A program made the translations under genes and the position numbers. The notes under the pieces were generated by a model. It saw nothing but the letters and a program-made list of their open reading frames with translations, did no database searches and was not told the DNA's origin. This document shows, piece by piece, positions 661 to 62,580 of a DNA stretch of 64,000 nucleotides. Source of the DNA: an uncultured virus (IMG/VR IMGVR_UViG_3300020256_000017). Its lineage: Duplodnaviria > Heunggongvirae > Uroviricota > Caudoviricetes. How positions within the stretch are numbered: position 1 is the stretch's first letter; every line of letters starts with the position of its first letter. Location of the stretch: IMG/VR virus record IMGVR_UViG_3300020256_000017; one strand, 5' to 3'.

Positions 661-704
661 TGTGTTGACGGAGCTAGTATCTCAAAAGCTGTGAGTGAAG
701 TCAA
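661..704 (-). promoter_or_regulatory. GTCAACACA-box promoter
   Basis: TTGACT-N17-GATACT-N6-GTCAACACA. Confidence 0.85.
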
Positions 705-812
705 TAAATTTAGTGCAGCTTTTTGTTTTGATGATATAATAAACAATATATTACTTGTCCCGCAGTATCACAATGCACGTCCACCATTGTTAAGCGGGCT
801 CCTATAAGAAAG

Positions 813-1658
813 ATGATGATGTTAAAAAAAATAGACGAGACGATAACACAGTACCTTGTTGACCGCTACGGTGAAGCGGTGCGCGATGACGTAGGGTTGC
901 TGCTGGGTGGGAAATTCCAATTACACCATCTCTTCAATTTAAGAACGATGATACGCAAAGACTGTGACCTGAGCGGCGGGAGAAACATGTTAAAAGTCGT
1001 CTCTGACAGTCTGTCTAAAAAAGATTTTGCCGGGGTCTGTCTCGATGGATGCAAAAACGCACGTATTCTTTTTGTCAATGGGGTGATGACACCCTATAGC
1101 TTAGCCCAATGGCAGCGCGACTGCCTACAAATGCTGTTTAAGCAACCTGTCGGCCTGGTTTATAACCCTACTGAAAGCCTCATTGCTGATTTGCTCGAAT
1201 GCCACCAAGATCGTTATGGCGAGCCGACAATGCTTGCACATGGATTGGTCGCGCAAATCGAATACACACTGAAAACATCCCCCTATCCGGTGACCGTAGT
1301 TGGTTATTCACAGGGTGCAATTATTGCGACGAGGGCGCTAAGCATATTGACAGCGCGTTTAGGCCGTGCGCAGTTGCAGCGCGTAAGATACATCACGTTT
1401 GGGGCAGGTTTTAGAGAAAATCAACTGCATGAGGCGATAGTGCAAGAGCATTTCGCTAATCTACGTGATCCGGTTGTTCACTTGGGACTGCTTCGTCCGG
1501 GTAGCGAGCACACCGGGGTTATTCATACCCGGGATGCGCAAGGTCATATGCTGGTCGCTGATTATTTGTCGAAAGGTGCCCGGCATGGGTTTGATTTGAG
1601 CAAAAGCCCTGTCTTTGCAAGGCTTATTGGTGAGGATATTAAGAACGCTGCTGGCTAA
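813..1658 (+). CDS. Alpha/beta-hydrolase-fold protein (lipase/esterase-like)
   Basis: GYSQG nucleophile elbow, N-terminal FVNGV, downstream DPV and His. Confidence 0.65.
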   Translation: MMMLKKIDETITQYLVDRYGEAVRDDVGLLLGGKFQLHHLFNLRTMIRKDCDLSGGRNMLKVVSDSLSKKDFAGVCLDGCKNARILFVNGVMTPYSLAQWQRDCLQMLFKQPVGLVYNPTESLIADLLECHQDRYGEPTMLAHGLVAQIEYTLKTSPYPVTVVGYSQGAIIATRALSILTARLGRAQLQRVRYITFGAGFRENQLHEAIVQEHFANLRDPVVHLGLLRPGSEHTGVIHTRDAQGHMLVADYLSKGARHGFDLSKSPVFARLIGEDIKNAAG

Positions 1659-2947
1659 CAGCCGTATCGCCTATTGCTGATAGCGCTAAGCTCTTCAATA
1701 AGCGCATGAAACTGCGCTTTAGGCTCTTGATTGCCGTCAGCACCTTGTTCAAACAAGCTGTAGCACACCGCGGCGTGTGCATCACATTGTCGCGCCATTC
1801 TTATGATATCAACAAGAGTGTTGACCATTAGGCGCTTAATGACTTCTTTCACTGTTTCACGTTGTTTTGGCGCTGCATTGCTTCCACCTGCACGAGCCTC
1901 AAAGTTGAGTGTGGAAGAAAGCATTTGAGGCTCGTACTGCGCATGCCGTTGAGATTCCGTGTGCGCATGAATAGTGCGCATTGCGCTAAGCAAATGTTCG
2001 GAGAAATTTTCATACCCCGCCGAAAGCATACCAATAAACGGTGTTTTAAACGCACCTGTCATTAAAGGCTCAAACCCAACAGTTATATCTTTGATCAGCA
2101 CCTCGATAGCGTCGTCAATCTCCTTGGGTAAGGTGGGTAAAAAGAGCTGCGTAATTATCTCTGTAGGGGCAAAGCTAACATCTAAATCCAATGAATTATG
2201 GTCATTAAATACATGTTGGCGATAAGCATTCAGCAGTGTCCACATATCACTATTATTGCAGCCATCACCAAGTAGGGATGTCATTTCCTGTGTGCACCAG
2301 GGTAACATCGATGACATGATGTCAAGTACAGCATCAAGAGGAAAGGAGATAAACCCTTCACACATAAGTGTTGCCACATTGTTGCAGCGAGCAGAAAAGC
2401 TGTGCTGTTGCGCTATCTGTGCATTGATATGGTCGCACTGGCGTTGCGCAATAAGACGGTGAGCGATACTGATGCGCTTGTTGTCAATGTTGTCAACTCT
2501 ATGCTTGATGAACACGGCTGCTTCGTCGGGCGTGGTAACCGAACGGTGAAGCGCGCCATCAAGATGGGTGAAGTCAATATCACTTAGCGTAGCGGCCTGT
2601 GTCGCTGTTGAGAGGAATGTTGAGGTGTCTTTAAAGGTCTCTTTATCTGTAAACACCTCGCTGAACACCTCGCGCTTAGCCTTCTGTATGAGAGAACGCA
2701 TGACGGTGACAGCGTTGGCATCAGCAAAATACCAATGCGCAGCCAACCCATAGCCAGACCCCGGGTAAAGGATCGCTATTTGCTCCTTGTGAAATAGTAC
2801 AACCCCCGTTTCTTTTAGCATCGAAAGTAACCATGAGGCAACCGACGTGTCGGGGCAGTACACCTCAACAAGGTGTGCTGTATCTAGCGACACTGATGAG
2901 GAAGGGGTAATGTTTAACTTGTTAAGGCGTTTGCCAAGTGGGTTCAT
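1655..2947 (-). CDS. Hypothetical protein
   Basis: Long ORF; likely start MNPLGKR with AAGGA RBS just after the upstream gene's stop. Confidence 0.75.
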   Translation of the reverse strand: MNPLGKRLNKLNITPSSSVSLDTAHLVEVYCPDTSVASWLLSMLKETGVVLFHKEQIAILYPGSGYGLAAHWYFADANAVTVMRSLIQKAKREVFSEVFTDKETFKDTSTFLSTATQAATLSDIDFTHLDGALHRSVTTPDEAAVFIKHRVDNIDNKRISIAHRLIAQRQCDHINAQIAQQHSFSARCNNVATLMCEGFISFPLDAVLDIMSSMLPWCTQEMTSLLGDGCNNSDMWTLLNAYRQHVFNDHNSLDLDVSFAPTEIITQLFLPTLPKEIDDAIEVLIKDITVGFEPLMTGAFKTPFIGMLSAGYENFSEHLLSAMRTIHAHTESQRHAQYEPQMLSSTLNFEARAGGSNAAPKQRETVKEVIKRLMVNTLVDIIRMARQCDAHAAVCYSLFEQGADGNQEPKAQFHALIEELSAISNRRYGC

Positions 2948-2951
2948 GCTT

Positions 2952-3587
2952 TTATCCTTGCAGTTCATCTGCCGCATCAAGTAAAGCGCGGTATTTACGT
3001 AGCGTGTTTTGCGCCTCCACAAGTTCATCATCAGTGACAGTCAGAGGGAATGAGAGGTCGCTGAAGACAATGCGGTTAAGGAGTGTAGTAAAAAAATCAA
3101 GGGTCGCGGCCGATGGCGTACCTAACGTTGAGTAAGGGTGAGACACTTCACCATCACGGTCTATTTCGTAATGATGCTCGCTAAACGCAGCTACGCGCTT
3201 AACAGAAAACGCAACACGCATTTCTTTATCACCATTCACGCTTGGGAATGAAAAACACACAGTTCGCTTGTCCGGGAGTGTGCCAAACGACGCTTTTTGA
3301 AACTCCGGTTCTTGAAGCGTTAAGCGAAACTCTGTCGATGCGATGGTACCTGCGACAATCCGAGGCAGAACGGCCTGAATGGCCTCGATTTCAGGACACG
3401 GGAAAGCGTTGGCCAGAGTTGCCGTCTCTTCTAGCACCTCAGAAGCTGCGAGCGTAACAAATGAAGGATCAAATGACTCTTCACGTGCACTGATAATACT
3501 ATTGGCATGCATAATGGCATGAAGTGCGCGTTGTAAGTTGTCGGTTGACTCTGTTTGACCTGTGTAACTTTTGGTTAGGGTTCGCAT
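2952..3587 (-). CDS. Hypothetical protein
   Basis: Start MRTLTK after AAGGA RBS and box promoter. Confidence 0.8.
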   Translation of the reverse strand: MRTLTKSYTGQTESTDNLQRALHAIMHANSIISAREESFDPSFVTLAASEVLEETATLANAFPCPEIEAIQAVLPRIVAGTIASTEFRLTLQEPEFQKASFGTLPDKRTVCFSFPSVNGDKEMRVAFSVKRVAAFSEHHYEIDRDGEVSHPYSTLGTPSAATLDFFTTLLNRIVFSDLSFPLTVTDDELVEAQNTLRKYRALLDAADELQG

Positions 3588-3599: not shown

Positions 3600-3644
3600 T
3601 GTGTTGACATAATTAAGTATGCCAAAAATGGACTCAAAAAGCAA
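3600..3644 (-). promoter_or_regulatory. GTCAACACA-box promoter
   Basis: TTGCTT-N17-CATACT-N7-GTCAACACA. Confidence 0.75.
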
Positions 3645-4741: not shown

Positions 4742-4785
4742 TGTGTTGACGATGGCATTATCTCAATGAGATGGCCTCTTGTCAA
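4742..4785 (-). promoter_or_regulatory. GTCAACACA-box promoter
   Basis: TTGACA-N17-GATAAT-N6-GTCAACACA. Confidence 0.85.
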
Positions 4786-5011: not shown

Positions 5012-5056
5012 TGTGTTGACAGGAATAAGTATCTCAAAACTTGAGTAGGTTGTCAA
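5012..5056 (-). promoter_or_regulatory. GTCAACACA-box promoter
   Basis: TTGACA..TGAGATACT..GTCAACACA. Confidence 0.85.
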
Positions 5057-5576: not shown

Positions 5577-5624
5577 TGTGTTGACATGTTAATTATCTCA
5601 AAAGTAAGTGTTCAAGTCAACACA
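5577..5624 (-). promoter_or_regulatory. GTCAACACA-box promoter with full inverted repeat
   Basis: TTGTGTTGAC-N30-GTCAACACAA; TTGACT-N17-GATAAT. Confidence 0.85.
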
Positions 5625-6309: not shown

Positions 6310-6353
6310 TGTGTTGACGTACCCATTCTCGCAGCAAAAGCACTCACCGTCAA
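6310..6353 (-). promoter_or_regulatory. GTCAACACA-box promoter
   Basis: TTGAC-N30-GTCAACACA with TGCGAGAAT -10. Confidence 0.8.
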
Positions 6354-6757: not shown

Positions 6758-6801
6758 TGTGTTGACAAGGTTATTCTCTCAAGAACTGTGTTTATTGTCA
6801 A
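6758..6801 (-). promoter_or_regulatory. GTCAACACA-box promoter
   Basis: TTGACA..TGAGAGAAT..GTCAACACA. Confidence 0.85.
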
Positions 6802-9212: not shown

Positions 9213-9262
9213 TGTGTTGACAATATAGACTTAATATTACTAGGTTTAATAAAATGAGTCAA
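9213..9262 (-). promoter_or_regulatory. GTCAACACA-box promoter (longer spacing)
   Basis: TTGAC-N36-GTCAACACA. Confidence 0.65.
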
Positions 9263-12528: not shown

Positions 12529-12572
12529 TGTGTTGACAGGATTAGTATCTCAATAAGTGAGGGCGTTGTCAA
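12529..12572 (-). promoter_or_regulatory. GTCAACACA-box promoter
   Basis: TTGACA..TGAGATACT..GTCAACACA. Confidence 0.85.
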
Positions 12573-13426: not shown

Positions 13427-13470
13427 TGTGTTGACAGGGACAGTATTACAAACACTGTGAGTATTGTCAA
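13427..13470 (-). promoter_or_regulatory. GTCAACACA-box promoter
   Basis: TTGAC-N30-GTCAACACA. Confidence 0.8.
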
Positions 13471-14180: not shown

Positions 14181-14372
14181 ATTAAATAATACCACAGTAG
14201 GGGATAAAGGCAAGCTATTTAAAATGTTGTGCAGGTGAAGAGAGTAAGTTAATTTGTTGCCTTATTCTAAAGTAGTGTTGTTATTTACTTGAAAGTATGA
14301 AAGAATTCATGTCATTGCTGTCAACGCAATATAAAATCATTTTCAAACACAACCCTGTAAGAAGGAATAATA

Positions 14373-14786
14373 ATGCTTAAAAAAGTAGTATTAGCGTTAT
14401 CGCTTAGTGCGAGTGTTGCCGTCTCTGCATTTGCTGAAGTGGCTGTCATTGTTCACCCTGAAAACACAGCAGAAATTACTGCTGAAGATGTAGCGCGTAT
14501 GTTCTTGGGTAAGGCGGGCCAATTTAGCGATGGTAAGGAGGTGCTCCCTATCACGCAAGAAACAGCGACGACGACGGATGCTTTTAATACGGGGTTGCTA
14601 AATCGTAGCAGCTCACAGGTCGCCAGCTATTGGGCAAAACAGGTGTTTACCGGAAAAGGATCGGCGCCAAAACAAGTAAGTGATGACGCCGCCGTCATCA
14701 ATCTCGTTAAAGACAATAAAAACGCCATCTCTTACGTCGATGCATCAAGCGTCACGGGTGATGTTAAAGTCGTATTGACCAAGTAG
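14373..14786 (+). CDS. Small periplasmic-binding-protein-like protein (phosphate ABC SBP-like family)
   Basis: Signal peptide; VAVIVHP..FLGK..YWAKQVFTGKG..P..AISYVD pattern. Confidence 0.8.
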   Translation: MLKKVVLALSLSASVAVSAFAEVAVIVHPENTAEITAEDVARMFLGKAGQFSDGKEVLPITQETATTTDAFNTGLLNRSSSQVASYWAKQVFTGKGSAPKQVSDDAAVINLVKDNKNAISYVDASSVTGDVKVVLTK

Positions 14787-18580: not shown

Positions 18581-18619
18581 GTTATGATTCCTCTAATTGA
18601 TTGAGAAAAAGCGCTCGAC

Positions 18620-18734
18620 TTGAAGCCTCCGACGAGTCATTCGAAGAATCGACTCGCGGAATCCAGACACTAACCTGCTTTAGACTGTTGCAACAACCAT
18701 AAAGAGGATAGCACTAGAATGCGGCTGACAAATG
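18620..18734 (-). mobile_element. Miniature internally deleted derivative of the IS200/IS605 element
   Basis: 18620-18716 matches 57901-57997 (right end); 18715-18734 matches 59762-59781 (left tip); same TTGAA flank. Confidence 0.9.
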
Positions 18735-19743: not shown

Positions 19744-19788
19744 TGTGTTGACAGGTGACATTATGCCTGAGGCTGTGTGCTTTGTCAA
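19744..19788 (-). promoter_or_regulatory. GTCAACACA-box promoter
   Basis: TTGACA..CATAAT..GTCAACACA. Confidence 0.8.
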
Positions 19789-19879: not shown

Positions 19880-20557
19880 ATGAGAAAGTGGTTAGTGGGC
19901 GCAGTGTTTACCGTATTATCCTGTGCCAGCCAAGCAGGATTTATTGATACTGATTGGAAAGTGTCAGGTGATGGGTTGGCAACGCTGCATGAAGAAACCG
20001 GTATTGAGTGGCTTAAGGTGACAAACACATTAGGGCAAAGTGTCGATGATGTTCAGGCTGATCTGGCTCCTGGTGGAAGTCTTGAGGGGTGGCGTATTCC
20101 TACGTCAGAGGAAATAGTCACATTATGGGAAGCGAATTTTGCAGGCAGCTCTGTGCTGAACAATCCTCAGGGGACCCGTCGAAACTATTCGCTTTACACA
20201 CAGCAAGCACAGGATTGGGTTTCGAACATGGGTGAGGTAACCCCCTCCCCGACAATCCGGTCTTATGGCCTAGGATACAAAGAGAACGGGCAGCTTGGTT
20301 TTTTTGGTGTGTCGCGCGCATCGGGACAGACGTCGTATTGGTACGGGTATGGTGACAACACAACTGATTATACAAACCAGTACATGGGCGTGTTGTTGGT
20401 GTCCGATGGCGGCGTTACATTAAGCTCCATCAATGACCCATCATTAAACATTCAAAATCCTCAGGCGCCGATTAACCAAGTGTCAGCACCTTTGCTTGGA
20501 GGCTTTGGCCTGATGACAATTGGACTAATGCTGCGTCGAAGAACAGCAAAGGGTTGA
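19880..20557 (+). CDS. PEP-CTERM-like sorted surface protein
   Basis: Signal peptide; C-terminal VSAP, TM helix, RRR; paralog of 30931. Confidence 0.8.
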   Translation: MRKWLVGAVFTVLSCASQAGFIDTDWKVSGDGLATLHEETGIEWLKVTNTLGQSVDDVQADLAPGGSLEGWRIPTSEEIVTLWEANFAGSSVLNNPQGTRRNYSLYTQQAQDWVSNMGEVTPSPTIRSYGLGYKENGQLGFFGVSRASGQTSYWYGYGDNTTDYTNQYMGVLLVSDGGVTLSSINDPSLNIQNPQAPINQVSAPLLGGFGLMTIGLMLRRRTAKG

Positions 20558-20571
20558 GCTATCCACAGATA

Positions 20572-20601
20572 CAAAAAAAGCGCCTTTATGGCGCTTTTTT
20601 G
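20572..20601. terminator. Bidirectional intrinsic terminator
   Basis: AAAAAAAGCGCC-TTTAT-GGCGCTTTTTT. Confidence 0.85.
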
Positions 20602-20825
20602 TTTAGGAGCTGCACGCTGAGAAGGCGTCAACACAACAGAGCGTGCAGCGAAGGGGGGCCTAGCACCAAGAGGGCGTCAACACAACAGGTGCCAGGCAAA
20701 TAAACTGGGCGGTTATATAGGCATTAAGTGTTGACGTTCTTAGTGCCCCGCGGCTAACAGACCGAGTAATCTCAAGGCGTTGTTAGCATTGTCGTCAGGT
20801 TTGAACCTGTGTTCTCCCTGTCGAC
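20572..20825 (-). ncRNA. Candidate multi-hairpin sRNA carrying two anti-box loops
   Basis: Promoter at 20832-20860, no plausible ORF, several hairpins, two loops with CUGUUGUGUUGACGCC, ends at a terminator with a U run. Confidence 0.7.
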
Positions 20826-20860
20826 ATGTGTATCCTCTCACAACATTTAGATCCTGTCAA
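20819..20860 (-). promoter_or_regulatory. Box-family promoter of the candidate sRNA (variant +1 GTCGACA)
   Basis: TTGACA-N17-GAGGAT with extended TG, N6, GTCGACA. Confidence 0.7.
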
Positions 20861-20897
20861 CACTTTTTCTGTTTTTTTTCGATCTTTTTTTACGTGA

Positions 20898-21290
20898 CTA
20901 CAAATAGCCGCGACAAGCTTTGATAAATGATGACGTAGCGATGCTAATGCGCTGGTTTGTCATGTCCAATGACAACGGCATTAGTTTATCGTTATTACAG
21001 GTTTCTCTCACCTGCATGTTGTAGTCGCCAATATAATGGGCAACAGTAATAATCTCATTCTCATCGAAGTGTGTGTAAAGCGCCGTGTCCCGTGGGAGGT
21101 CGGCCGCTTTGTTTCGTATCGCAGATAGTGCGTTAAATCCAAGTGTAATGCGCTCTGTTGGTGTTACGTATGCAGTGGACGCCTCAGCAACAGAATCCAC
21201 TTTTGCTAAGTTAAGCGCAGCCGCATTTGCACCAATGATAAAACCTGCAATTAAAACCGCTAAGCGAGGTGAGGTATGGGTTGTTGACAT
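20898..21290 (-). CDS. Hypothetical exported or membrane-anchored protein
   Basis: N-terminal hydrophobic segment, GGAG RBS, box promoter. Confidence 0.75.
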   Translation of the reverse strand: MSTTHTSPRLAVLIAGFIIGANAAALNLAKVDSVAEASTAYVTPTERITLGFNALSAIRNKAADLPRDTALYTHFDENEIITVAHYIGDYNMQVRETCNNDKLMPLSLDMTNQRISIATSSFIKACRGYL

Positions 21291-21304
21291 GATGTTCTCC
21301 GTAC

Positions 21305-21348
21305 TGTGTTGACAAAGCTATTATCTCAAAAGCTGTGTTTGTAGTCAA
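21305..21348 (-). promoter_or_regulatory. GTCAACACA-box promoter
   Basis: TTGACT..TGAGATAAT..GTCAACACA. Confidence 0.85.
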
Positions 21349-21362
21349 GTGTGGAACTGACT

Positions 21363-21716
21363 TTAGGTCAACAAAATAGGATTGTTCATTTTTAAAATGC
21401 GTGACTCTTCATCAGGATAATAGAACTGAAAGTCCACCTGCCTTCCTCCAAAGTGAGGCTTTTGGTGGTCAGCGGTAAATCTTGCATGATAATGCTCTGA
21501 CACGCTAATTGACCGCTTGCCTTTTACCGGATTTATCACTAAAAGGATATCCAGATCGCTGTCAGGACGAGCTTCCCCTCTGGAGGTGCTGCCAGCCAGA
21601 TAGGCACGTACAATAGGGTATTGTCGCTTAACCCATAGGTTACGACGAAGCAGACGCGTTGCCTCTATGAGTGTAGGTATAGCAATGGTGTCTCCAGATG
21701 TATCTTGGAAGTGCAT
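21363..21716 (-). CDS. Minimal nucleotidyltransferase (Pol beta superfamily)
   Basis: AGSTSRGEARPDSDLDIL motif and a third Asp in VDF. Confidence 0.8.
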   Translation of the reverse strand: MHFQDTSGDTIAIPTLIEATRLLRRNLWVKRQYPIVRAYLAGSTSRGEARPDSDLDILLVINPVKGKRSISVSEHYHARFTADHQKPHFGGRQVDFQFYYPDEESRILKMNNPILLT

Positions 21717-21731: not shown

Positions 21732-21775
21732 TGTGTTGACAATTATATTGTCACACACGCGAAAGGGGCTGTCAA
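21732..21775 (-). promoter_or_regulatory. GTCAACACA-box promoter
   Basis: TTGACA..TGTGACAAT..GTCAACACA. Confidence 0.8.
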
Positions 21776-39958: not shown

Positions 39959-40010
39959 AACATTCCTTTTTCTGTTGTTTTGCTCTAGCCTGAAAAGCAA
40001 GTAGCATGCC

Positions 40011-40601: not shown

Positions 40602-40609
40602 GTGTCACA

Positions 40610-40930
40610 TCATGAGACCTGTCGAGCGATAATTTTATCAATATCTTGCGCCTCGACCCATAGGTGTTCAACAGGTACGTTGTCCAGCACTTTGCAGTAG
40701 TGATGAACCCAGCGATTCAGGAAATACTCGGTATTTATGTACTTCCACTCTGAGTTTAGCGTTAAGTTAACGTCACTCATTAAAGTTTCAGATTCGAAGT
40801 CGGCAACCGCTTTACAGTTGACAGATGTGGTATCATCCAGCGCTGATTTAGTCAGAAAGTTAGGCGCGTGGCATAAGCGCGTCTCGGGGCGTTTGCCTTT
40901 AGTGTATATGTAAATGGCGCGTTGAAGCAT
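40610..40930 (-). CDS. Hypothetical protein
   Basis: AAGG RBS, start MLQRAIY. Confidence 0.65.
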   Translation of the reverse strand: MLQRAIYIYTKGKRPETRLCHAPNFLTKSALDDTTSVNCKAVADFESETLMSDVNLTLNSEWKYINTEYFLNRWVHHYCKVLDNVPVEHLWVEAQDIDKIIARQVS

Positions 40931-40962
40931 ATTTTTTACCTTTGAGTTGTTTGTTTTGAGTA

Positions 40963-41343
40963 TTAGTAAGGTAAGTCTACCCATCTAATGCCGTAGGTGA
41001 AAATGAGTGCGATGACGAAAGATAGCGCAAATGTCATCAGTGAAAAAGCGCCCCAGCGAACAAAGCCAGATGCCTCATTGTCATGATCGACCATCTTATA
41101 GGCAACGCGCATGGTGAATATGGCGGTGGCAGCGATGATTGCCGAGTAAATAGGCTCCCATTTAAACGCGAGAAGCACAGCGCCTAGCACGCTCCCAAAA
41201 AAGACGACATCAATAAGGTGAGAAAGCCATTTCCATTTAACGCGAAGTCCAAAGGGGGGTGATGTTACTAAGCCCTTAAAGAGCCGCGTGCACCCTACTG
41301 CAAAGAGTAAGATGGCGCAGAGTTTAAATGTATATCCTATCAT
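40963..41343 (-). CDS. Hypothetical membrane protein
   Basis: About four hydrophobic helices. Confidence 0.7.
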   Translation of the reverse strand: MIGYTFKLCAILLFAVGCTRLFKGLVTSPPFGLRVKWKWLSHLIDVVFFGSVLGAVLLAFKWEPIYSAIIAATAIFTMRVAYKMVDHDNEASGFVRWGAFSLMTFALSFVIALIFTYGIRWVDLPY

Positions 41344-41408
41344 AATACGAAATTGTGTCTTCTTAATGTTTTTGCATTGATTTATCTACGTATCAGATAA
41401 TATCACAA

Positions 41409-41699
41409 TTACACTGACACGCTGTCATCTGATTGCTGTTTTTCGAGCTGCGCATCAATCATTTCACGGCTAATAAATACCTCTAACCGGTTGGTGTTAA
41501 GCGCCGTGGGCATACCTTTATTGGGGCCTGACTTTAATGGACGTGTATCCGAACCTATTGCCATGATGCCATTAGCGACATGTCTGAAATCATACGCCAT
41601 CCAGCTATCGCTGAGATTAGGATTGATCTTTTCTGCTTCGATACGCGCAGCATCGGCCATCGCTTTGCCTGAGTCAAGTTTATCTGGGGTTGTGTTCAT
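41409..41699 (-). CDS. Hypothetical protein
   Basis: GAGG RBS, start MNTTPDK. Confidence 0.7.
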   Translation of the reverse strand: MNTTPDKLDSGKAMADAARIEAEKINPNLSDSWMAYDFRHVANGIMAIGSDTRPLKSGPNKGMPTALNTNRLEVFISREMIDAQLEKQQSDDSVSV

Positions 41700-41716
41700 A
41701 AAGTACCTCATATAAA

Positions 41717-41974
41717 TTATTGATTGTCTGAGTGACAGAGCGAACAAGTGAGTTGATGGTCGTCTTTTATTGACTCTTCAATATCAAACACTTGTTGACA
41801 TCTCTCACAACGAAAGAGGTCGTCATCCGCAAGAGGGTATGCCTCCATCGCGGCGACAATAGCGCGCTTCTCATCGATGAGGTGGGTGCGCTTTGATGCA
41901 CCTTGCGTTTTCTCAATATCATCATTAGTCCTGGCGAGGGCAGTGACTAAATCATCATAGGTGTTATATTCCAT
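41717..41974 (-). CDS. Small zinc-ribbon protein
   Basis: CERC..CSLC; coupled to the upstream stop. Confidence 0.65.
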   Translation of the reverse strand: MEYNTYDDLVTALARTNDDIEKTQGASKRTHLIDEKRAIVAAMEAYPLADDDLFRCERCQQVFDIEESIKDDHQLTCSLCHSDNQ

Positions 41975-42330
41975 TATTGGCCCTCGAAGTTAATTTCGTA
42001 GTAAGCCTCGCAGATTAAAAAAGCAAATTCTTCAATATCATTACGACACTCATCCATCAGTGCTTTTTCAGACTCGTAAAATGATTCGGCCGTGTCGCTG
42101 ATTTCATCAGCGTTTAGGTGGCTAAAGTTAACCTCGGCGACCGTTTCACCAACATCTATATCGTTCCCCTCAACAATGGCACCATATCCCTCGTAGCCCG
42201 TCTTGAAGATCCACGCCAACGAGCCCTCTATCCGCTTTGCACGCTGAAAGCCGGTGTCTGGGTCAGTAAGGAAAAAGCCGTCATCCAAATCACGTTGGAC
42301 ATCAGCAGGGTATGTAGTATCGATAGACAT
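41974..42330 (-). CDS. Hypothetical acidic protein
   Basis: GAGGA RBS, start MSIDTTY; box promoter upstream. Confidence 0.75.
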   Translation of the reverse strand: MSIDTTYPADVQRDLDDGFFLTDPDTGFQRAKRIEGSLAWIFKTGYEGYGAIVEGNDIDVGETVAEVNFSHLNADEISDTAESFYESEKALMDECRNDIEEFAFLICEAYYEINFEGQ

Positions 42331-42377
42331 TAGCGTTCCTCTTTTCGAGCGCTCTCGTGTGGATAACGAAAGTGCAT

Positions 42378-42422
42378 TGTGTTGACATGAAGTATTGTCC
42401 CAAAAGTTAAGAGGGTTGTCAA
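42378..42422 (-). promoter_or_regulatory. GTCAACACA-box promoter
   Basis: TTGACA..TGGGACAAT..GTCAACACA. Confidence 0.8.
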
Positions 42423-42553
42423 GACTCATGAGTTAAGCAAGATAAGTTTGGGTATGGTAAGTTCGACATTCGGCACGTTCTTTTACGCTGCCGTTGTGTG
42501 CCGCTTTTTCTTTTTTAACAACATCAGAAGGAGGTGTGAATATCAATTTAAAT

Positions 42554-42597
42554 TTGATTAAAGGTTATGTTTGTAGTAGATTAGACACGTCAAAACA
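42554..42597 (+). promoter_or_regulatory. Box promoter variant (GTCAAAACA)
   Basis: TTGATT-N17-TAGATT-N6-GTCAAAACA; an exact box overlaps the ATG at 42619. Confidence 0.65.
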
Positions 42598-42618
42598 ACA
42601 AACTTAAATAGGTGAATA

Positions 42619-43116
42619 ATGTCAACACAAACAGGTTTCAATGTTAACAGAGAAACGTTATTTGAAAGTGAATTGCGGTTCAGTAACGTTATAATTATGG
42701 ATTTAGTGACCTCCGAAGAAACGGCGCCGCAGTCTTTAAAAGACGCGTTGTATGACATTGACGAAATAAAGCCTGCATTAGATCAAATGGGGGTGAAAGG
42801 TGTCGAAGACTACGATGACACTAGTGAGTTGATTTATCTTATTGCCAACGAAATGAATGTGTGTGGTGTGTTGGCGCAAGTGGAAACGCCGCTGCCAAAT
42901 GATTTTATGACCAAGCTAAACTCTGACGAGCTCGATAGACACAGCTATGGTTACTCCTGGGGAAGATATACATCGACATGGATATACGCAAAAGATATCC
43001 AATCGTTAACAGAAAAAGCCGAGAAATGGCGAGCAAACGTGATTAATGAGGCATATAATGCCGCGTGTGAACAAAAATCGCAGTCTGCGGATAATCAACA
43101 AAAGGGTGAAGAGTGA
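42619..43116 (+). CDS. Hypothetical acidic protein
   Basis: AGGTG RBS, 165 aa. Confidence 0.8.
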
Positions 43117-44402: not shown

Positions 44403-44877
44403 ATAGCGTCATAGAGAACGTGGGGGTCTCATCGCCGCAATGCTCTCGCCATGTCAACACATGGTCGGTAGATGTAATCCAAGTCGTCTCTGAGTTTTTT
44501 GGGGCGAGCGACTCGTTGTGCACTTTAGCGTAGCGGCGGTATAGTGCTGAGAATTCAGATTGACAATATGTTGTAGACGAAAACGTCACAGTAATACTAG
44601 ACTCAACAGCAATATCGCTATCGTCAGTGAGGTATTCTGCAAGCACAATGTGATATTCTTCATCACTAGTGAAACGCTGAGGAACCTGTTGGTAACGGAC
44701 GCCGCCGTTATTTTCAGGGGTCATCACCCATCCTCGCGCATCAGGGTTGACTTTACCCAACGTTATACCTCCAAGCGTGTCGATGATAGGCAGCACAGCG
44801 GGAGGTTTCTTTGCATGGGTTAGCATAGGCGTGATTGCAAGCATTGTTGCGAGAGTAGAGCAGATAACATATTTCAT
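44386..44877 (-). CDS. Hypothetical exported protein
   Basis: Signal peptide ..THA. Confidence 0.7.
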   Translation of the reverse strand: MKYVICSTLATMLAITPMLTHAKKPPAVLPIIDTLGGITLGKVNPDARGWVMTPENNGGVRYQQVPQRFTSDEEYHIVLAEYLTDDSDIAVESSITVTFSSTTYCQSEFSALYRRYAKVHNESLAPKNSETTWITSTDHVLTWREHCGDETPTFSMTLSKNPQ

Positions 44878-45262: not shown

Positions 45263-45556
45263 ATGCATGGAAATATGATGGGAAATATTGTTACAGAAAA
45301 TAAATATCAAAATGCGCTTAGATTATGTGTAGTGAGCGTATCAGTATACATTTTGGCATCAACATTTATAGCAGTGTACGACTACTTCCCCTTACAACCG
45401 ACCAACAAGATCTTAGGATTCGAATTACTAGAAGCCAGTCGCTTCGTGGCATTAGTTCGAGTGTTTTTAGCTGCGTCCTTTGCTTTAATAATTACTCTTC
45501 TCCCCCTCCTATACGCTTGGGCGTGGATAGAAGATAAATGTTTTTCTGAGGTATAG
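45263..45556 (+). CDS. Small membrane protein in an AT-rich patch
   Basis: Two hydrophobic segments; start uncertain. Confidence 0.5.
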   Translation: MHGNMMGNIVTENKYQNALRLCVVSVSVYILASTFIAVYDYFPLQPTNKILGFELLEASRFVALVRVFLAASFALIITLLPLLYAWAWIEDKCFSEV

Positions 45557-45564
45557 GAAATATA

Positions 45565-49179: not shown

Positions 49180-49224
49180 TAGTCTGTCATGATGTGATTT
49201 AGTATTATTGTTTCCGTCAACATA
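49180..49224 (+). promoter_or_regulatory. Box promoter variant (GTCAACATA)
   Basis: TATTAT-N7-GTCAACATA, then GAGGA RBS. Confidence 0.6.
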
Positions 49225-50032: not shown

Positions 50033-50079
50033 GGTGTTGACGTTGTAGAGATGATAGTAATTTGTGATCAGGGAGTCAA
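50033..50079 (-). promoter_or_regulatory. Box promoter variant (GTCAACACC)
   Basis: TTGAC-N33-GTCAACACC. Confidence 0.65.
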
Positions 50080-50351: not shown

Positions 50352-50395
50352 TGTGTTGACAATGTTATTATCTCGCTTTTTGTGAGGGTTGTCAA
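50352..50395 (-). promoter_or_regulatory. GTCAACACA-box promoter
   Basis: TTGACA..GATAAT..GTCAACACA. Confidence 0.85.
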
Positions 50396-53772: not shown

Positions 53773-53818
53773 TTGATTCTCGTGCGTATTTTTGCTATTA
53801 TTAATACACGTCAACACA
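53773..53818 (+). promoter_or_regulatory. GTCAACACA-box promoter
   Basis: TTGATT-N17-TATTAT..GTCAACACA. Confidence 0.8.
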
Positions 53819-53837
53819 AGTGGGAAAGAGTTTGAAA

Positions 53838-54167
53838 ATGGACCCTTATCTAAGAAAAACAGCCCGTCAGGAAGTGACTAAATCGAATCAAATGCTTCGC
53901 CAAAAGCTATTTGTCGAAGGTAAATCTTTGGCGAAATATTACCACGCGGTCATGGTGAAAGTGAAAGCGATTGACAACGAGCCGGTGAACCGTGAGTGTC
54001 TTTATGAACTGAAAGGTATGCTGACGCAATACGTGAACATTAGAAAAGCGCTATCGCCTACCATTGGTAGCGACATGTTGACGAAAGATTTAACTGGATT
54101 TCTCAACAATGTGAATAGCATGTTGGGTGAGAAAGGCGGAAAATCAACAGCGGAAGGTAATGCATGA
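53838..54167 (+). CDS. Hypothetical protein
   Basis: Start MDPYLRK after box. Confidence 0.7.
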   Translation: MDPYLRKTARQEVTKSNQMLRQKLFVEGKSLAKYYHAVMVKVKAIDNEPVNRECLYELKGMLTQYVNIRKALSPTIGSDMLTKDLTGFLNNVNSMLGEKGGKSTAEGNA

Positions 54168-54523
54168 GCATTAGCATTAGCATTACCCTTCGGCTTGTCG
54201 CATTCATGCTCTGCGCAGCTTCACCCAATGTATCAATGGCATACTGGGCTAAGTTGGACACCACGAACCTAAAATTCAAACGAGTTCACATTGTCAGTCA
54301 GAGCAATAAAGATTTGCGGTGCTCTATTAAGGCTTTCAGTGACCGCCTCTTTATTGAAGTGAAAGCCAAAAGTTCAACACCCACCTTCAATCTGAAGCGA
54401 AACGTAATACGAACGGACCTGAGCCTTCATTGTAAACCTATAGATAACGCGACAAGGACATTAAAGCCTTGGCGGAGAATACGTCACGTTGTTCCTTTCA
54501 CTGATGTATTTGAATTCATTTAA
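54164..54523 (+). CDS. Hypothetical exported protein
   Basis: ATGA overlap, signal-like N-terminus. Confidence 0.65.
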   Translation: MSISISITLRLVAFMLCAASPNVSMAYWAKLDTTNLKFKRVHIVSQSNKDLRCSIKAFSDRLFIEVKAKSSTPTFNLKRNVIRTDLSLHCKPIDNATRTLKPWRRIRHVVPFTDVFEFI

Positions 54524-54541
54524 CGTTTATTGGGAAGTGTT

Positions 54542-55003
54542 ATGCCAAGCGAATTACACGAGAAGTTATGCGCGAAGGCCGTAGCCTGGCTAAAGCGAAA
54601 TGGGTTCCCGGTCTCCGACAAAAATGTCTCCGGTGCAGGGTGTCGAGAGCGTGTTGATGCAATTGGCTTCAGACAGCAGTGCGCAGTGCTTGTTGAGGTC
54701 AAAGTGAGTCGCGCTGACTTTATGGCAGACCAGCGCAAACCAGAAAGGGCAGAGGGGGGCGTTGGTACCTACCGTTTTTATTTGGCGCCTGAAGGGTTGT
54801 TGCAAGAGGAAGACCTGCCTAAGGGGTGGGGGTTACTTGAGTATAAAGGGAGAAGTATCACCATGCGTCATGGGCCATTAGGAAATTGGTGGCCAAACTT
54901 TCATGCAGCACAAGACAATGAGTGGAGAGAATTCGCACATCGCCCTTGCGAGAAATCAGAGCACGCTTTACTTTATGCTTTAGCAAGAAAGAATATTTGT
55001 TGA
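54542..55003 (+). CDS. PD-(D/E)xK nuclease-like protein (MmcB-like)
   Basis: E.VDAIG..LVEVKVSRADF..D..KP motif. Confidence 0.7.
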   Translation: MPSELHEKLCAKAVAWLKRNGFPVSDKNVSGAGCRERVDAIGFRQQCAVLVEVKVSRADFMADQRKPERAEGGVGTYRFYLAPEGLLQEEDLPKGWGLLEYKGRSITMRHGPLGNWWPNFHAAQDNEWREFAHRPCEKSEHALLYALARKNIC

Positions 55004-57950: not shown

Positions 57951-59282
57951 CTAACCTGCTTTAGACTGTTGCAACAACCATAAAGAGGATAGCACTAACG
58001 GGTTTCCCGTTGTCGGACAAGCATTCGGCTTGTTTCGACTCCACATTTGCTTACGCAATTGTGGATAATAAATCTTAATAATGCCTCGTGTGGCAATGTT
58101 GTAAGCAGCATTGAGATCCGCGTTATAGCGTTTTCCATTGCTGAACTTCGCATTAGCATAGTTATCTTTATCACGCGATAACTTACCACTACCATCATAA
58201 GCATAGCTTGATGTGCCACGCGCATAAACGCGATGTGTGCGAATACCAACTTCCATAGACTTGCTTTCGACATTATCAGCCAGCCGCGATTTAAACCAGT
58301 TGTGAAACTTCACTTTCATGGTTTTGCTGCGACCTTTTGGCTTCCAGCGTGTTAGGTCTTCGATGATAATCCCGTCGCACTCAAACTGCGTCGCTAAATC
58401 GACGATCTTGCGGCTTATCTGATGACTCATATTGTGGTTGAGCTGGCGCAATCGACGATGCTCACTGGTGCAAAAAGCGTTAGGAAGTTTATTGCCGTGG
58501 CGAGTCGCTTTTTTTGCCTTAGTGCGTATGCGCTGCATGATGCGGTAAACACGGTCTTTATCTGTTCTATCGAAAAATGCACGATGAACAACAGTGCCGT
58601 TTTTATCCACGACAGCGCAGGCTGCGGCTGAGTTAATGCCCATGTCAACGGCCAAGATTTGGCCGCTGAAATCGGTACTCTCTTTTAACGGTATACTTAA
58701 TTTTGTCGGCGTAGACAGTGCCCACTGCTTACCTTTTAGTGTGAGTAATGGTGACATTTCCTTACCTTTACCCAAAAAGCGGGATTTGCCAGATAAGCGA
58801 AACGCTTGCCAGATCCAGTCATTATTCATTCTCACCTTAATAAAGGCAGTTTTATTGTCGTCGCTGAATTTAACGCATTGACCTTTATAAAGACTTGGGA
58901 AGGTGTTTGTTGAGCAAGTGAGCTTTGGCGGCATCTTTTTCATGCCTGCATCTAACCAGTCATTATATCTCGTATGAAATGAACTCACCTGCCCGTAAGC
59001 ATCCATAATAGCGACGCGACGCAAGTAGCTTGGGAATTTGTAGTAGTTTTTATGAAAATGCGGATGCTTGATATCCGGTCGTGACTTTGTTGGGTGAATT
59101 AAATTCTCGACGATTTTAATGCACTCATTACCTTGTGCACGCTGAAGCGTTCGCCATCGAGCATTAATCAACACCATGAGGTCACGCACATACTTTCGGT
59201 AATACGCAAGCGTATCCCCCAGTACCTTACGCTGTTGGGCATCGGTATTGATTTTAAGCTTATCGGAACGTATCATTTTCAT
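57951..59282 (-). CDS. tnpB: TnpB RNA-guided endonuclease
   Basis: RuvC residues AVDMG, IIEDL, NADLNAA. Confidence 0.92.
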   Translation of the reverse strand: MKMIRSDKLKINTDAQQRKVLGDTLAYYRKYVRDLMVLINARWRTLQRAQGNECIKIVENLIHPTKSRPDIKHPHFHKNYYKFPSYLRRVAIMDAYGQVSSFHTRYNDWLDAGMKKMPPKLTCSTNTFPSLYKGQCVKFSDDNKTAFIKVRMNNDWIWQAFRLSGKSRFLGKGKEMSPLLTLKGKQWALSTPTKLSIPLKESTDFSGQILAVDMGINSAAACAVVDKNGTVVHRAFFDRTDKDRVYRIMQRIRTKAKKATRHGNKLPNAFCTSEHRRLRQLNHNMSHQISRKIVDLATQFECDGIIIEDLTRWKPKGRSKTMKVKFHNWFKSRLADNVESKSMEVGIRTHRVYARGTSSYAYDGSGKLSRDKDNYANAKFSNGKRYNADLNAAYNIATRGIIKIYYPQLRKQMWSRNKPNACPTTGNPLVLSSLWLLQQSKAG

Positions 59283-59312
59283 ATTAAATACCTTATCAGT
59301 TACAATTAAATA

Positions 59313-59732
59313 ATGCAACCACAGAACACGCTTAAACCGCTTAATCATAGTGCTTATAGACTTCATTACCATGTTGTTTTTGTAATTAAATACCGTAATA
59401 GAGTAATAAACCGGGATGTGATGGAAAGGATGCGCGATATCTTTAGTCACGTACTTGGGAAGTGGGGGTGTGAATTAAGTGAATTTGGTGCAGAAGAAGA
59501 TCATGTACACCTGCTTATAGAAGCACATCCATCGCTTAATCTATCCAGAATGATAGGAAATCTTAAAACGGTCTCCGCAAGGCATATTCGAAAAGAATAT
59601 GCAGAGCATTTAAGTAAATATTTTTGGAAACCTTATTTCTGGTCAAGAGCGTATGCTGTTACTACAACGGGAGGTGCCAATTTAGAGAAAGTAAAAGATT
59701 ACGTTTTGTCTCAAGAAAAACCGTCAGCCTAG
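59313..59732 (+). CDS. tnpA: IS200-type Y1 HUH transposase
   Basis: YHVVFVIKYR, DHVHLL, FWSRAY and C-terminal YxxxQ. Confidence 0.95.
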   Translation: MQPQNTLKPLNHSAYRLHYHVVFVIKYRNRVINRDVMERMRDIFSHVLGKWGCELSEFGAEEDHVHLLIEAHPSLNLSRMIGNLKTVSARHIRKEYAEHLSKYFWKPYFWSRAYAVTTTGGANLEKVKDYVLSQEKPSA

Positions 59733-61043: not shown

Positions 61044-61087
61044 TGTGTTGACCTTGTTATCATCTCAAAAACAGCGTGGGGTGTCAA
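61044..61087 (-). promoter_or_regulatory. GTCAACACA-box promoter
   Basis: TTGACA..TGAGATGAT..GTCAACACA. Confidence 0.85.
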
Positions 61088-61157: not shown

Positions 61158-61496
61158 ATGAGCAAGGTTGTTGTGCGGTTTCATCCTGCCATGACAATAA
61201 CAGAGGATGACGCGGCGTTTTTTGCTATGGCCGACAAGAACGTGCTCTCTCGCATAGTGGACGCCGTTGAGAATGAAATAGGTCATCATGCCATGATGAG
61301 GCTTATTGACACCTATGCTTTTATGACACCTCATAAAGTCACGCTGCTGACTCCTGTAGACAAGGTTTCTTCGCCTTGCGTGGTAGATGAGAAGAAACTC
61401 AACTTATTCTTAAATGCCGCCATAGAAGCATCTCCAGCGATATTGAAGAAGACGCAAGAGCGCATAACACTGATACCTCTTAAGGTGTTTCGGTGA
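61158..61496 (+). CDS. Hypothetical protein
   Basis: AAGGTG RBS, start MSKVVVR. Confidence 0.7.
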   Translation: MSKVVVRFHPAMTITEDDAAFFAMADKNVLSRIVDAVENEIGHHAMMRLIDTYAFMTPHKVTLLTPVDKVSSPCVVDEKKLNLFLNAAIEASPAILKKTQERITLIPLKVFR

Positions 61497-61512
61497 TATG
61501 CGCATCGCGGCG

Positions 61513-62523
61513 CTATCTGGCCGGTTTGATGAGTTCGGGGTTGGCGTCGAGGTGGTCGTTAATCAAACTGCTGTCATGACCAGTAAGTGCGCCAACATCT
61601 TCGATGAAAAAGTCCTCTTCATAGGCTTCAAGATAGAGGCTTCCTGACGCGGCTTTAGCAAGTTTAGCTGCGCTGGCAAGGTAATCTTGCATCGCATCTT
61701 CTTTCTTAATGTAGTAGTTTTTGCAGTCGTCTTTAACGACGTAGAGCGTCATCATGCCTCGTGATGTCTTTACTTTAAGCGCTTCCCGTGCGCATCTCTG
61801 TGCATTGGGGATTTGATCTTCAGTCAGTTCATCAAGGTAAAGCCTAATGACTTCATCATTTATTGAATGCGACTTAAGGAAGTTGACCACGGCATTATGA
61901 CCGTTGAGTAGCGCTTCGAAGCGCGCGCGTTCTTCGCCAGTGGTATTGTTTGTGCGGCGCTTGATGTATTCAATCTGTTCTGAAATTTCACCGCGCTCTT
62001 CTTCTGTGAGAAGCACCCATAAGACAGGGGCGTATTCTTCGCCACTATCGTCGGTTGGGTACGTCAAAGGTGTGACTTCATTTGGCTTAAACGAAGCGAC
62101 TGTCTTTTCATCGAAATATTCATGCAGGTCACTGATATCTACCATTGAGGGTGACAGTGAAATGTCTCGGCCTGAGGTGAACGTATCGCCTTCCACGGAC
62201 TTTTTCGCCTCTGCTAAAAAAGCATCATTGGCTTCTTTACGGTCGGTAAACCATTGAGAGCGGTAGTCTGTGCCGAACACACCGAAGATACGTACACGTC
62301 CAATTTTCTGACGGTGCTCTTTGAGCATATCGATATAGGTGATAGCGCGCGAGAGCTGTGAGTTAGGAAAAAAAGAAAATACGGCATCAAATCCCTGCCT
62401 TTCTTTAATGAGATTCATGATCAAACGAACGCCGTCTCTCTCTTCGTCATTCAGATTTTCTGCATCAGGGTGAGTCGAGTTGAATTGCTGAATAATAAGC
62501 GATGTGATGGTGCCGTATTGCAT
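61513..62523 (-). CDS. Hypothetical protein
   Basis: GAGGA RBS after box; 336 aa. Confidence 0.8.
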   Translation of the reverse strand: MQYGTITSLIIQQFNSTHPDAENLNDEERDGVRLIMNLIKERQGFDAVFSFFPNSQLSRAITYIDMLKEHRQKIGRVRIFGVFGTDYRSQWFTDRKEANDAFLAEAKKSVEGDTFTSGRDISLSPSMVDISDLHEYFDEKTVASFKPNEVTPLTYPTDDSGEEYAPVLWVLLTEEERGEISEQIEYIKRRTNNTTGEERARFEALLNGHNAVVNFLKSHSINDEVIRLYLDELTEDQIPNAQRCAREALKVKTSRGMMTLYVVKDDCKNYYIKKEDAMQDYLASAAKLAKAASGSLYLEAYEEDFFIEDVGALTGHDSSLINDHLDANPELIKPAR

Positions 62524-62536
62524 GTTAAATCCTCAT

Positions 62537-62580
62537 TGTGTTGACGTATAAATTATCTCAAAAAAATCATTTTAAGTCAA
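62537..62580 (-). promoter_or_regulatory. GTCAACACA-box promoter
   Basis: TTGACT..TGAGATAAT..GTCAACACA. Confidence 0.85.

Follow-up and report, generated by a model that had tools for sequence, protein, structure and literature searches.

What could hold one 9-nt word unchanged at the head of transcription unit after transcription unit on a single mobile replicon? The question is posed by a 64,000-nt stretch of DNA, analysed here at its full length and called the window, from the uncultured virus record IMG/VR IMGVR_UViG_3300020256_000017, in which the word TGTGTTGAC recurs on the plus strand just upstream of minus-strand genes and reads GTCAACACA in the direction of their transcription (hereafter, the box). 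Following up a prediction, made from the sequence alone, that the box marks a co-regulated class of promoters, we found that it lies at the predicted start site of a rigid promoter module and that exact antisense copies of it occupy the hairpin loops of a candidate small RNA (sRNA) encoded by the same element. It is these antisense copies in the loops of a candidate sRNA that are new here; sRNA regulons and replicon-wide regulons are already known. We put at about one half the probability that the module supplies a shared 5' leader targeted by a self-encoded antisense sRNA.

The window contains 31 exact copies of TGTGTTGAC/GTCAACACA, against 0.89 expected, and no more than three were seen in any of 100 dinucleotide-preserving shuffles. 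In an unbiased count of all 9-mers of the window the box ranks first with its 31 copies, and the next unrelated words reach at most nine. Each of the 25 plus-strand positions of TGTGTTGAC listed in the original prediction is an exact match, as is the opposite-orientation copy at 53810, and the variants that it named at 42589 (GTCAAAACA), 49216 (GTCAACATA) and 50033-50041 (GTCAACACC) are true one-mismatch copies in promoter context. Five further exact copies, absent from that list, read GTCAACACA on the plus strand at 5616, 20627, 20676, 42621 and 44453. Altogether, 26 of the 31 exact copies belong to one rigid promoter module, which is transcribed leftwards in 25 cases and rightwards in one. 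A literature search for the motif returned only primers and short hairpin RNAs among the matches listed.

The modules were defined by an exact box match combined with a promoter-context scan of the window, and their elements follow in a constant order: a -35 element TTGAC(A/T/G), a 17-bp spacer, TG, a -10 element GAnAAT or GAnACT, 6-7 nt, Y|GTCAACACA, a Shine-Dalgarno sequence and ATG. The scan required A at -11 and T at -7, and these are hence present in 26/26. Of the 26 promoters with an exact box, 25 have a 17-bp spacer, 22 the TG extension and 22 a TTGAC -35 element; the -10 element and the box are 6 nt apart in 17 promoters, 7 nt in seven, and 8 and 12 nt in one each. With a gap of 6-7 nt in 24/26, the layout TTGAC-N30/31-GTCAA proposed earlier holds. 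Position -1 is C or T in 25/26 modules, +10 is A in 17/26 and +11 is C in 12/26. Start sites generally prefer a pyrimidine at -1 and a purine at +1, and the pyrimidine in front of the G therefore places initiation at the G of the box, a start that we infer and that is compatible with the sequence. By a crude first-start rule, 18/26 modules have their start codon 19-27 nt from the box G, and the leaders are very short and unstructured; with a start codon this near, the whole 5' untranslated region would be made up of the box, the Shine-Dalgarno sequence and a spacer.

In their -35 element, spacer, TG and -10 element the modules are sigma70-type extended -10 promoters. The sigma70 consensus has T at -12, and the G found there in 20/26 modules is atypical of such promoters. 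Inspected by eye, the units of the window that lack the box, among them most plus-strand cargo genes and about eight minus-strand units, have unrelated, ordinary promoters of the TATAAT type. Set against these box-less promoters, the G at -12 may mean that the class uses a different sigma factor, or that its members share ancestry.

The degree of conservation was assessed by aligning each module of the window, with the box ignored, to every locus of a family of related contigs, which gave 25 distinct orthologous versions of 13 modules. Fourteen of the 25 versions differ somewhere between -55 and +40, and all 25 keep the exact box. Not one of 225 box positions was substituted, compared with 31/513 upstream, 0/162 in the -35 element, 7/405 in the spacer, 4/243 in the extended -10 and 6/162 in the discriminator; the single change at a 'box position' falls within the sRNA promoter's own non-canonical +1. 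At one locus of the family (L008) a nucleotidyltransferase gene is 87% identical to that of the window, while the two promoters cannot be aligned save for their functional elements and the exact box. Together, these results make the promoter class and its conservation near certain, and they give good support to the idea of a distinct co-regulated class, since the box-less units differ and the box, kept in every orthologous version, survives even a promoter swap.

Two of the additional copies, at 20627 and 20676, are antisense: each occupies a hairpin loop of a minus-strand candidate anti-leader sRNA, about 250 nt long (20825 to 20574). The region 20574-20825 lacks an ORF (open reading frame) and folds with z = -5.35, and the intergenic interval 20575-20900, compared with shuffles, gave z-scores of -3.65 (plus strand) and -4.75 (minus strand). 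The candidate promoter of the sRNA (20817-20892, minus strand), read by eye, comprises A-tracts at 20864-20892, a -35 element (GTG)TTGACA at 20855-20863, a 17-bp spacer, TG, a -10 element GAGGAT at 20832-20837 and a 6-nt gap. It is of the same class as the modules, and its -10 GAGGAT recurs in the module at 33868; its +1 region, however, is not the box but GTCGACAGG (20817-20825). Hairpin A (20609-20649, minus strand) has a 10-bp stem and a 21-nt loop with the first anti-box, the complement of 20627-20635 (mean unpaired probability 0.61), and hairpin B (20658-20697, minus strand) has a 10-bp stem and a 20-nt loop with the second, the complement of 20676-20684. The stem of B differs from that of A in sequence and the loops share a 16-nt core. 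A bidirectional intrinsic terminator, read by eye as GCGCC-N5-GGCGC between A and T runs, lies at 20573-20601, and among relatives its variation is confined to the loop and to run length. The 3' part of the sRNA, in which the loop of hairpin A reads CUGUUGUGUUGACGCC... and is followed by the terminator, folds with z = -5.96.

The core of the sRNA is 100% identical in locus L030 and about 99% identical in L008, two loci whose whole-locus BLAST identities to the window are 91.4% and 95.8%, respectively. A third anti-box hairpin (C) was found in loci L010, L032 and L036, on the coding strand of the regulon at ~79 kb of both giant contigs of the family and on a diverged fragment; it has an unrelated stem and carries UGUGUUGACGC in its loop, directly followed by a terminator GGCCGGC-GAAA-GCCGGCC-UUUU. 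Stem A scores above the 99th percentile of 3000 random positions, while none of the 26 promoter boxes exceeds the 95th, and in stems B and C the G.U pairs form on the anti-box strand only. The structural support comes solely from these three paralogous hairpins, with their different stems and same loop core. The predicted transcript shows what is expected of a trans-acting sRNA in general, namely its own promoter, no ORF, an intrinsic terminator with a U tail, a stable fold and an accessible seed.

Other readings were considered and set aside. At the sRNA locus a plus-strand decoy RNA is disfavoured, because it would have no promoter and a terminator upstream, and two of its stems would carry A.C mismatches. 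A divergent promoter using an inverted box as its -35 element showed, by eye, no conserved -10 element at 17 bp. Promoters of the Frpo type, known from plasmid leading regions, are long imperfect hairpins whose stem reconstitutes the -35 and -10 hexamers; the long stem of the sRNA region has a TTGAC-like word and no -10 at 17 bp, as judged by eye, and an ordinary duplex promoter is read instead. An Rfam scan assigned no known RNA family to the sRNA region (12 matches at E<=10 in 20500-20950), and the similarity to RNAI and AgrB (E 0.05-0.15) reflects merely a stem-loop with a terminator. On the plus strand, the first loop (20619-20639) resembles a truncated module TGAGAA-GGC-box and the second (20668-20687) reads AAGAGGGC-box; this hints at an origin of the antisense seeds in inverted copies of the module.

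The loops share their seed with GcvB. According to the excerpt of PMC5900567, the GcvB target consensus is CACAACAT in E. coli and Salmonella and AACACAACAT in P. multocida, and the seed is AUGUUGUGUU. The core of the box equals the published GcvB target AACACAAC, and a G/U-rich R1-type seed complementary to CACAACAT and AACACAAC is found twice in the candidate sRNA: TGTTGTGTTG, nt 71-80 of E. coli K-12 gcvB within its R1 seed, recurs as a 10-nt word in each of the two loops, and beyond this word the two RNAs do not align. The Rfam model of GcvB (RF00022) had no match in the window at the gathering score, nor at E<=10 in 20500-20950, and the genes next to the sRNA include no gcvA-like neighbour and no LysR/GcvA-type domain. 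As judged by sequence comparison, the candidate sRNA is GcvB-like at the level of its seed and is not a member of the GcvB family.

The core of the box also appears at translation starts. There are 17 copies of AACACAAC on the coding strand and 4 on the opposite one, with about 2.3 expected in total, and two of the four opposite-strand copies are the sRNA's own. The five copies of ATGAACACA all lie on the coding strand and compare with an expectation of 1.27; every one of 100 shuffles had fewer than five. In four cases the copy is a real start codon, and three of these belong to internal cistrons of a long minus-strand operon and have no promoter of their own (41691-41699; 37366-37374, the start of a 666-aa (amino acid) protein; and 34762-34770). 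AAC-ACA forms codons 2-3 in 4/60 ORFs, compared with 0.06 expected from the in-frame dicodon frequency. A separate observation, at 14320-14375, concerns a plus-strand gene weakly similar to a PstS-family substrate-binding protein: it has a one-mismatch box, GTCAACGCA, and also an AACACAAC core that lies 27 nt before the ATG, just upstream of the Shine-Dalgarno sequence, and both the type of gene and the position are typical of GcvB targets.

The mechanism that we propose would run as follows. The backbone genes would be transcribed from one strong sigma70-type class, with initiation 7-8 nt past the -10 element at the G of Y|GTCAACACA, so that at least 26 transcription units of the window would yield mRNAs with a common C/A-rich 5' end, GUCAACACA(AC), followed within a few nt by the ribosome-binding site and, about 19-27 nt from the 5' end, by the start codon. 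The element would also make the ~250-nt sRNA, from the same promoter class with a different +1, whose hairpin loops would present the exact complement CUGUUGUGUUGAC, and a further anti-leader hairpin would be encoded elsewhere on it. Pairing of the G/U-rich seed with the shared leader would fall within the ribosome footprint, and a second possible partner of the seeds is AACACA(AC) where it directly follows the AUG of an internal cistron. Such pairing would adjust, for all genes of the class together, how well the mRNAs are translated or how stable they are; repression is the most likely outcome, on the model of GcvB and its C/A-rich enhancer-type sites. Because the sRNA has the same promoter class as its targets, it would accumulate together with them, which could give a burst of expression followed by damping. 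Control at the RNA level is favoured by the anti-box in the loops of a terminator-ended, ORF-less transcript and by the core at the starts of internal cistrons.

Several observations weigh against this proposal. The start-codon test was post hoc, devised once the pattern had been seen. The coding strand is C/A-rich overall (reversed-control 7-mers 119 vs 35), which inflates the counts of loose C/A motifs, and loose 7-mer target counts were dropped because of this confounding. In the minimum-energy fold the second anti-box pairs with an internal box-like GUCAACACU at 20727-20735, and it is predicted to be sequestered, with an unpaired probability of 0.11. A simple scanner called neither the sRNA promoter, whose -10 GAGGAT matches at 3/6 positions, nor the terminator. 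None of 80 predicted pairs is compensatory and one is broken among three near-identical sequences, a sample in which covariation is uninformative because the relatives are nearly identical. The duplex energies (-28.3 for box leaders vs -18.6 and -19.5 kcal/mol) do not make an independent test because they follow from exact complementarity, and two RNAs of such lengths would share a 10-mer, as here with GcvB, by chance with a raw probability of ~0.05. The antisense copies could be relics of inverted promoter fragments. What lies in the DNA itself is the rigidity and conservation of the module, the antisense loop copies, the promoter and terminator of the sRNA, its lack of an ORF and the seed identity with GcvB; from these we infer the production of the sRNA, its pairing, the start at G and the direction of the effect. 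Finally, the box is tied to the -10 element (gap 6-7 nt) more tightly than a pure sRNA target would need, which would also fit a role at the DNA level or in initiation.

This last point leads to an alternative that we consider unlikely, if somewhat less so than the other rivals: a DNA operator, in which the box at +1, in some promoters perhaps together with an inverted TGTTGAC at -35, binds an element-encoded repressor that shuts the class off after a burst, in the manner of ArdK at CUP elements or of Reg576. The position of the box is fixed relative to the -10 element and not to the ribosome-binding site, the class-specific G at -12 (20/26) shows that features of the DNA are shared too, TG precedes the -35 TTGAC (TGTTGAC) in about 7/26 modules, and at 5585 the promoter contains a perfect inverted repeat of 9 nt around a spacer of 30 nt. 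Plasmid global regulons of such a type are also well documented, as far as the excerpts go (ArdK/CUP, PMC6289460; Reg576, PMC6294495). Yet the box is a single, non-palindromic 9-mer, and its inverted -35 partner is exact in 1/26 modules and within one mismatch in 3/26. No helix-turn-helix, ribbon-helix-helix or other DNA-binding family was detected among the 89 ORFs of the window (E<=1e-3) or among 25 small ones (E<=1), although a regulator could sit elsewhere in 486 kb. An operator would moreover leave unexplained the antisense copies in the hairpin loops of a terminator-ended, ORF-less unit, as well as the core at the start codons of internal cistrons and the boxes that lie 12 nt from the -10 element (9221) or on an ATG (42621). 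The original prediction, which likened the class to CUP-controlled genes, is accordingly upheld as to the co-regulated promoter class, whereas the DNA-level operator of the CUP/ArdK kind that it implies is not favoured by the antisense loop copies and the start-codon cores.

We regard as improbable a purely cis-acting signal, in which the box would be an initial transcribed sequence that has been optimised and/or a C/A-rich translation enhancer that was copied together with a successful promoter cassette, with no regulator in trans and with antisense copies that are relics. Strong phage early promoters have conserved initial transcribed regions, and CA-rich or downstream-box enhancers are known as well. 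The very short and unstructured leaders (18/26 at 19-27 nt) would suit such a signal, AACACA directly past the ATG fits an enhancer on either side of the start codon, and C/A-rich elements are described as translation enhancers in excerpts of PMC4474525 and PMC9438474, citing Sharma 2007. Enhancers, however, tolerate variation, whereas the 9-mer stays invariant, its GTC included, next to a -35 element, spacer, -10 element and discriminator that drift, and the antisense copies, which sit in perfect stems and are better conserved than the flanking genes, are unlike relics. Very unlikely, in our view, is cross-talk with the host, in which the leaders would be GcvB-type target mimics that let a host GcvB-like sRNA control the element or that sponge it as AgvB does, or in which host mRNAs would be the main targets of the element's sRNA. 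In its favour, the core of the box is that of the published GcvB target, the loops share 10 nt with the E. coli GcvB seed and AgvB offers a precedent in the excerpted sources; against it, the GTC of the box finds its match (GAC) in the loops of the element and not in E. coli GcvB, and a literature search gave no paper combining GcvB and Alteromonas.

We then asked how far the regulon extends beyond the window. In a metagenome search with the composite -10+box pattern, 26 of 46 loci form one family on nine contigs, including Ga0209379_10000010 (486 kb), Ga0187833_10000011 (230 kb) and Tara-type fragments, while the remaining 20 are singletons without -35 context. The window matches parts of both giant contigs at 89-100% identity in a mosaic pattern. 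On the 486-kb contig the modules lie at ~80 kb, 95-155 kb and ~205 kb, of which ~80 and ~205 kb are beyond the span of the window, and the claim of a replicon-wide regulon is thus borne out across the sequence examined. The -10+box scan of a viral collection and of species-representative genomes gave two isolated single matches each and no family member, protein-based locus searches in the viral collection found nothing, and eight ORFs from loci beyond the window were orphans, save one nucleotidyltransferase.

Similarities to annotated records are limited to short stretches of Alteromonas megaplasmids of 300-610 kb (TnpB 74%, 292 bp 96%, 120 bp 88% and 100 bp 90% identity), and the host is probably Alteromonas. 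Pfam, PHROGs and NCBIfam gave very few matches for the 89 ORFs of the window, none of them diagnostic of plasmid or phage; an Alteromonas-type megaplasmid is our best guess for the replicon. Three cultured Alteromonas megaplasmids, taken as a substitute for a host-chromosome control, carry the box at background level (1, 7 and 1 copies in 302, 604 and 336 kb), and no box-headed regulon was found on these three plasmids. The first 50 of the 302 kb of plasmid MRG65-300 contain no over-represented 9-mer, and so no analogous regulon with another box. In a 600-kb Alteromonas megaplasmid pair, 75% of coding sequences have no assigned function, according to the excerpt of PMC5217437.

The modules differ in detail along the window. 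From the left, the first minus-strand module (661-704, box 661-669) has the -35 element TTGACT, a 17-bp spacer, TG-GATACT and a gap of 6, that at 3600-3644 (box 3600-3608) has TTGCTT, CATACT and a gap of 7, and that at 4742-4785 (box 4742-4750) has TTGACA, TG-GATAAT and a gap of 6. The module at 5012-5056 (box 5012-5020; gap 7) is followed by a 16-aa ORF. At 5577-5624 (box 5577-5585) the -35 region is an exact inverted box (5616-5624), so that the pair makes up the perfect inverted repeat, with its 30-nt spacer, mentioned above. The geometry is atypical at 9213-9262, where the box lies 12 nt past the -10 element (TAATAT) and not at the predicted +1. The module at 19744-19788 (box 19744-19752) has no TG extension, and that at 32489-32531 (box 32489-32497) has a weak -35 element and a spacer of 16. 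Further minus-strand modules are found at 6310-6353 (box 6310-6318), 6758-6801 (box 6758-6766), 12529-12572 (box 12529-12537), 13427-13470 (box 13427-13435), 25611-25654 (box 25611-25619), 26076-26120 (box 26076-26084), 26810-26853 (box 26810-26818), 29524-29567 (box 29524-29532), 33171-33214 (box 33171-33179), 61044-61087 (box 61044-61052) and 62537-62580 (box 62537-62545).

For other modules the downstream gene is informative. The minus-strand module at 21305-21348 (box 21305-21313) drives the gene at 20898-21290, directly upstream of the candidate sRNA, and that at 21732-21775 (box 21732-21740) precedes an MntA-like nucleotidyltransferase; in L008 and L030 the latter module is non-homologous and the box is kept. 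Behind the module at 23445-23489 (box 23445-23453) the gene begins with ATG-AACACA at 23426. The module at 33860-33904 (box 33860-33868) has the -10 element GAGGAT of the sRNA promoter, that at 42378-42422 heads an operon of ~8.5 kb and 11 ORFs (42386 down to 33901), and the gene behind 50352-50395 (box 50352-50360) also has AACACAACA directly past its ATG. The sole exact-box module on the plus strand (53773-53818, box 53810-53818) drives the genes at 53820-55003. One-mismatch variants head the modules at 50033-50079 (minus strand, GTCAACACC), 49180-49224 (plus strand, GTCAACATA) and 42554-42629 (plus strand), which combines GTCAAAACA at 42589 with an exact box at 42621-42629. The ugd gene had been described as free of the box; this does not hold, as the first gene of its operon follows the 42589 variant and its ATG (42619) overlaps the exact box at 42621. 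The last exact copy (44453-44461, plus strand) falls in the 3'-terminal part of a minus-strand ORF, with a terminator ~70 nt further on, and is possibly due to chance; as a fourth anti-box hairpin it has weak support, from a local hairpin with z = -1.8.

Most products of these units are orphans. The long operon (33901-42429, minus strand) holds two adjacent orphans of 663 and 666 aa, and neither plasmids nor phages gave a match to the 666-aa protein, for which a protein atlas likewise gave none that was usable. In 20898-21716 (minus strand) the MntA-like nucleotidyltransferase (21363-21716) is followed by a 130-aa orphan without a family match (20898-21290); each has its own box module, and the two may be a toxin-antitoxin pair of the nucleotidyltransferase/HEPN type. 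The box-headed units 22207-22806, 23986-24816 and 28235-28705 encode a DUF262/GmrSD_N-like protein, a NinI-like Ser/Thr phosphatase and a weakly SspB-like protein, functions that are frequent in host-interaction regions of phages or plasmids. A gene for a TnpB-type RNA-guided nuclease (57951-59450, minus strand) has 74% DNA identity to one on the 600-kb megaplasmids of A. mediterranea, in which it adjoins a PcfJ-domain gene. The 100 bp at 18617-18716 are 90% identical to the end of the same plasmid TnpB locus and may be a solo insertion sequence end or a guide-RNA remnant, and the 292 bp at 45270-45561 are 96% identical to an unannotated part of A. mediterranea MRG65-300 and overlap a 97-aa ORF (45263-45556). 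The GC skew is positive on the plus strand nearly throughout the window while most genes are on the minus strand, which makes the mRNAs C-rich relative to G, the opposite of the usual coding-strand bias.

Known global control of mobile-element genes relies on protein repressors at DNA operators, whereas the sequence here points to a shared promoter-encoded leader and self-encoded antisense seeds. If this is true, a replicon of more than 480 kb, almost all of whose genes are orphans, could be throttled as a block at the RNA level. A label of 9-13 nt and an RNA of 250 nt would then constitute a compact, testable system for cost limitation or expression timing in giant marine plasmid-like elements, and a mobile element may have borrowed, or invented anew, a GcvB-type pair of seed and target. 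In any case the box is a practical marker for picking out this uncultured replicon family in metagenomes and for setting the limits of its transcription units. A more speculative extension, to which we assign little probability, is that a promoter-given RNA 'address label' on every backbone mRNA, together with the element's own sRNAs mimicking the GcvB seed, wires the element in both directions into a GcvB-type amino-acid/nutrient network of the host; a host sRNA with a G/U seed could then shut the element down, transporter mRNAs of the host could come under repression by the sRNA of the element, and the abundant leaders could act as a sponge for the host sRNA. The result would be an on/off switch that works post-transcriptionally on the scale of a replicon and is, to our knowledge, of a kind not described for plasmids or phages.

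Among known systems, KorA/KorB of IncP-1 plasmids and RegA/RegB acting on T4 early mRNAs are cases of one protein effector serving many promoters or early mRNAs of one replicon. They differ from the proposed system in their protein effectors and in their sites, and we know of none that uses a promoter-encoded common 5' end. ArdK acts as a repressor at repeated plasmid promoter operators, the CUP elements of IncN plasmid pKM101 (excerpt of PMC6289460), and Reg576 is a plasmid global regulator of p576 with the same kind of operator (excerpt of PMC6294495). As far as these excerpts tell, they resemble the present element in having conserved repeats at the promoters of a plasmid gene set and a coordinated, probably transient, expression. 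They are unlike it in using double-stranded DNA operators, a handful per plasmid, with an identified repressor, whereas the present element, in whose window no repressor was found, has a non-palindromic 9-mer at +1, repeated at least 26 times per 64 kb, along with antisense copies of it in a predicted RNA.

A second group of comparisons is with RNAs. DapZ reportedly has a GcvB-like seed. The candidate sRNA resembles DapZ and MicL in that its promoter lies directly past the stop codon of a co-directional gene (20898-21290) and in sharing a terminator, but those two are chromosomal, have small regulons and have no matching uniform leader. Both are sRNAs with their own promoters at mRNA 3' ends, as excerpts of PMC4474525 and PMC9438474 describe. 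The same excerpts present AgvB as a prophage RNA that mimics the C/A-rich GcvB target. AgvB, an anti-GcvB RNA to be compared alongside SroC, a GcvB sponge, resembles the present system, so far as these sources go, in that RNA with a C/A-rich mimic of a GcvB target is carried by a mobile element. Unlike here, however, AgvB is a single decoy RNA, whereas on this element the C/A-rich sequence heads dozens of mRNAs and the complementary seed is encoded as well.

The closest comparison is with GcvB itself, known from Enterobacterales, Pasteurellales and Vibrionales. In excerpts of PMC4474525 and PMC9438474, the C/A-rich site of GcvB doubles as a translation enhancer. GcvB and the candidate sRNA are alike in their G/U-rich single-stranded seed, in AACACAAC-type sites at or just upstream of ribosome-binding sites, in the many mRNAs concerned and in the intrinsic terminator with a U tail that ends both RNAs. 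They are unlike in that the seeds lie in hairpin loops here and in a linker in GcvB, and in that the targets of GcvB are scattered, degenerate chromosomal sites, whereas those proposed here are an invariant 5'-terminal leader given by one promoter class on a mobile replicon.

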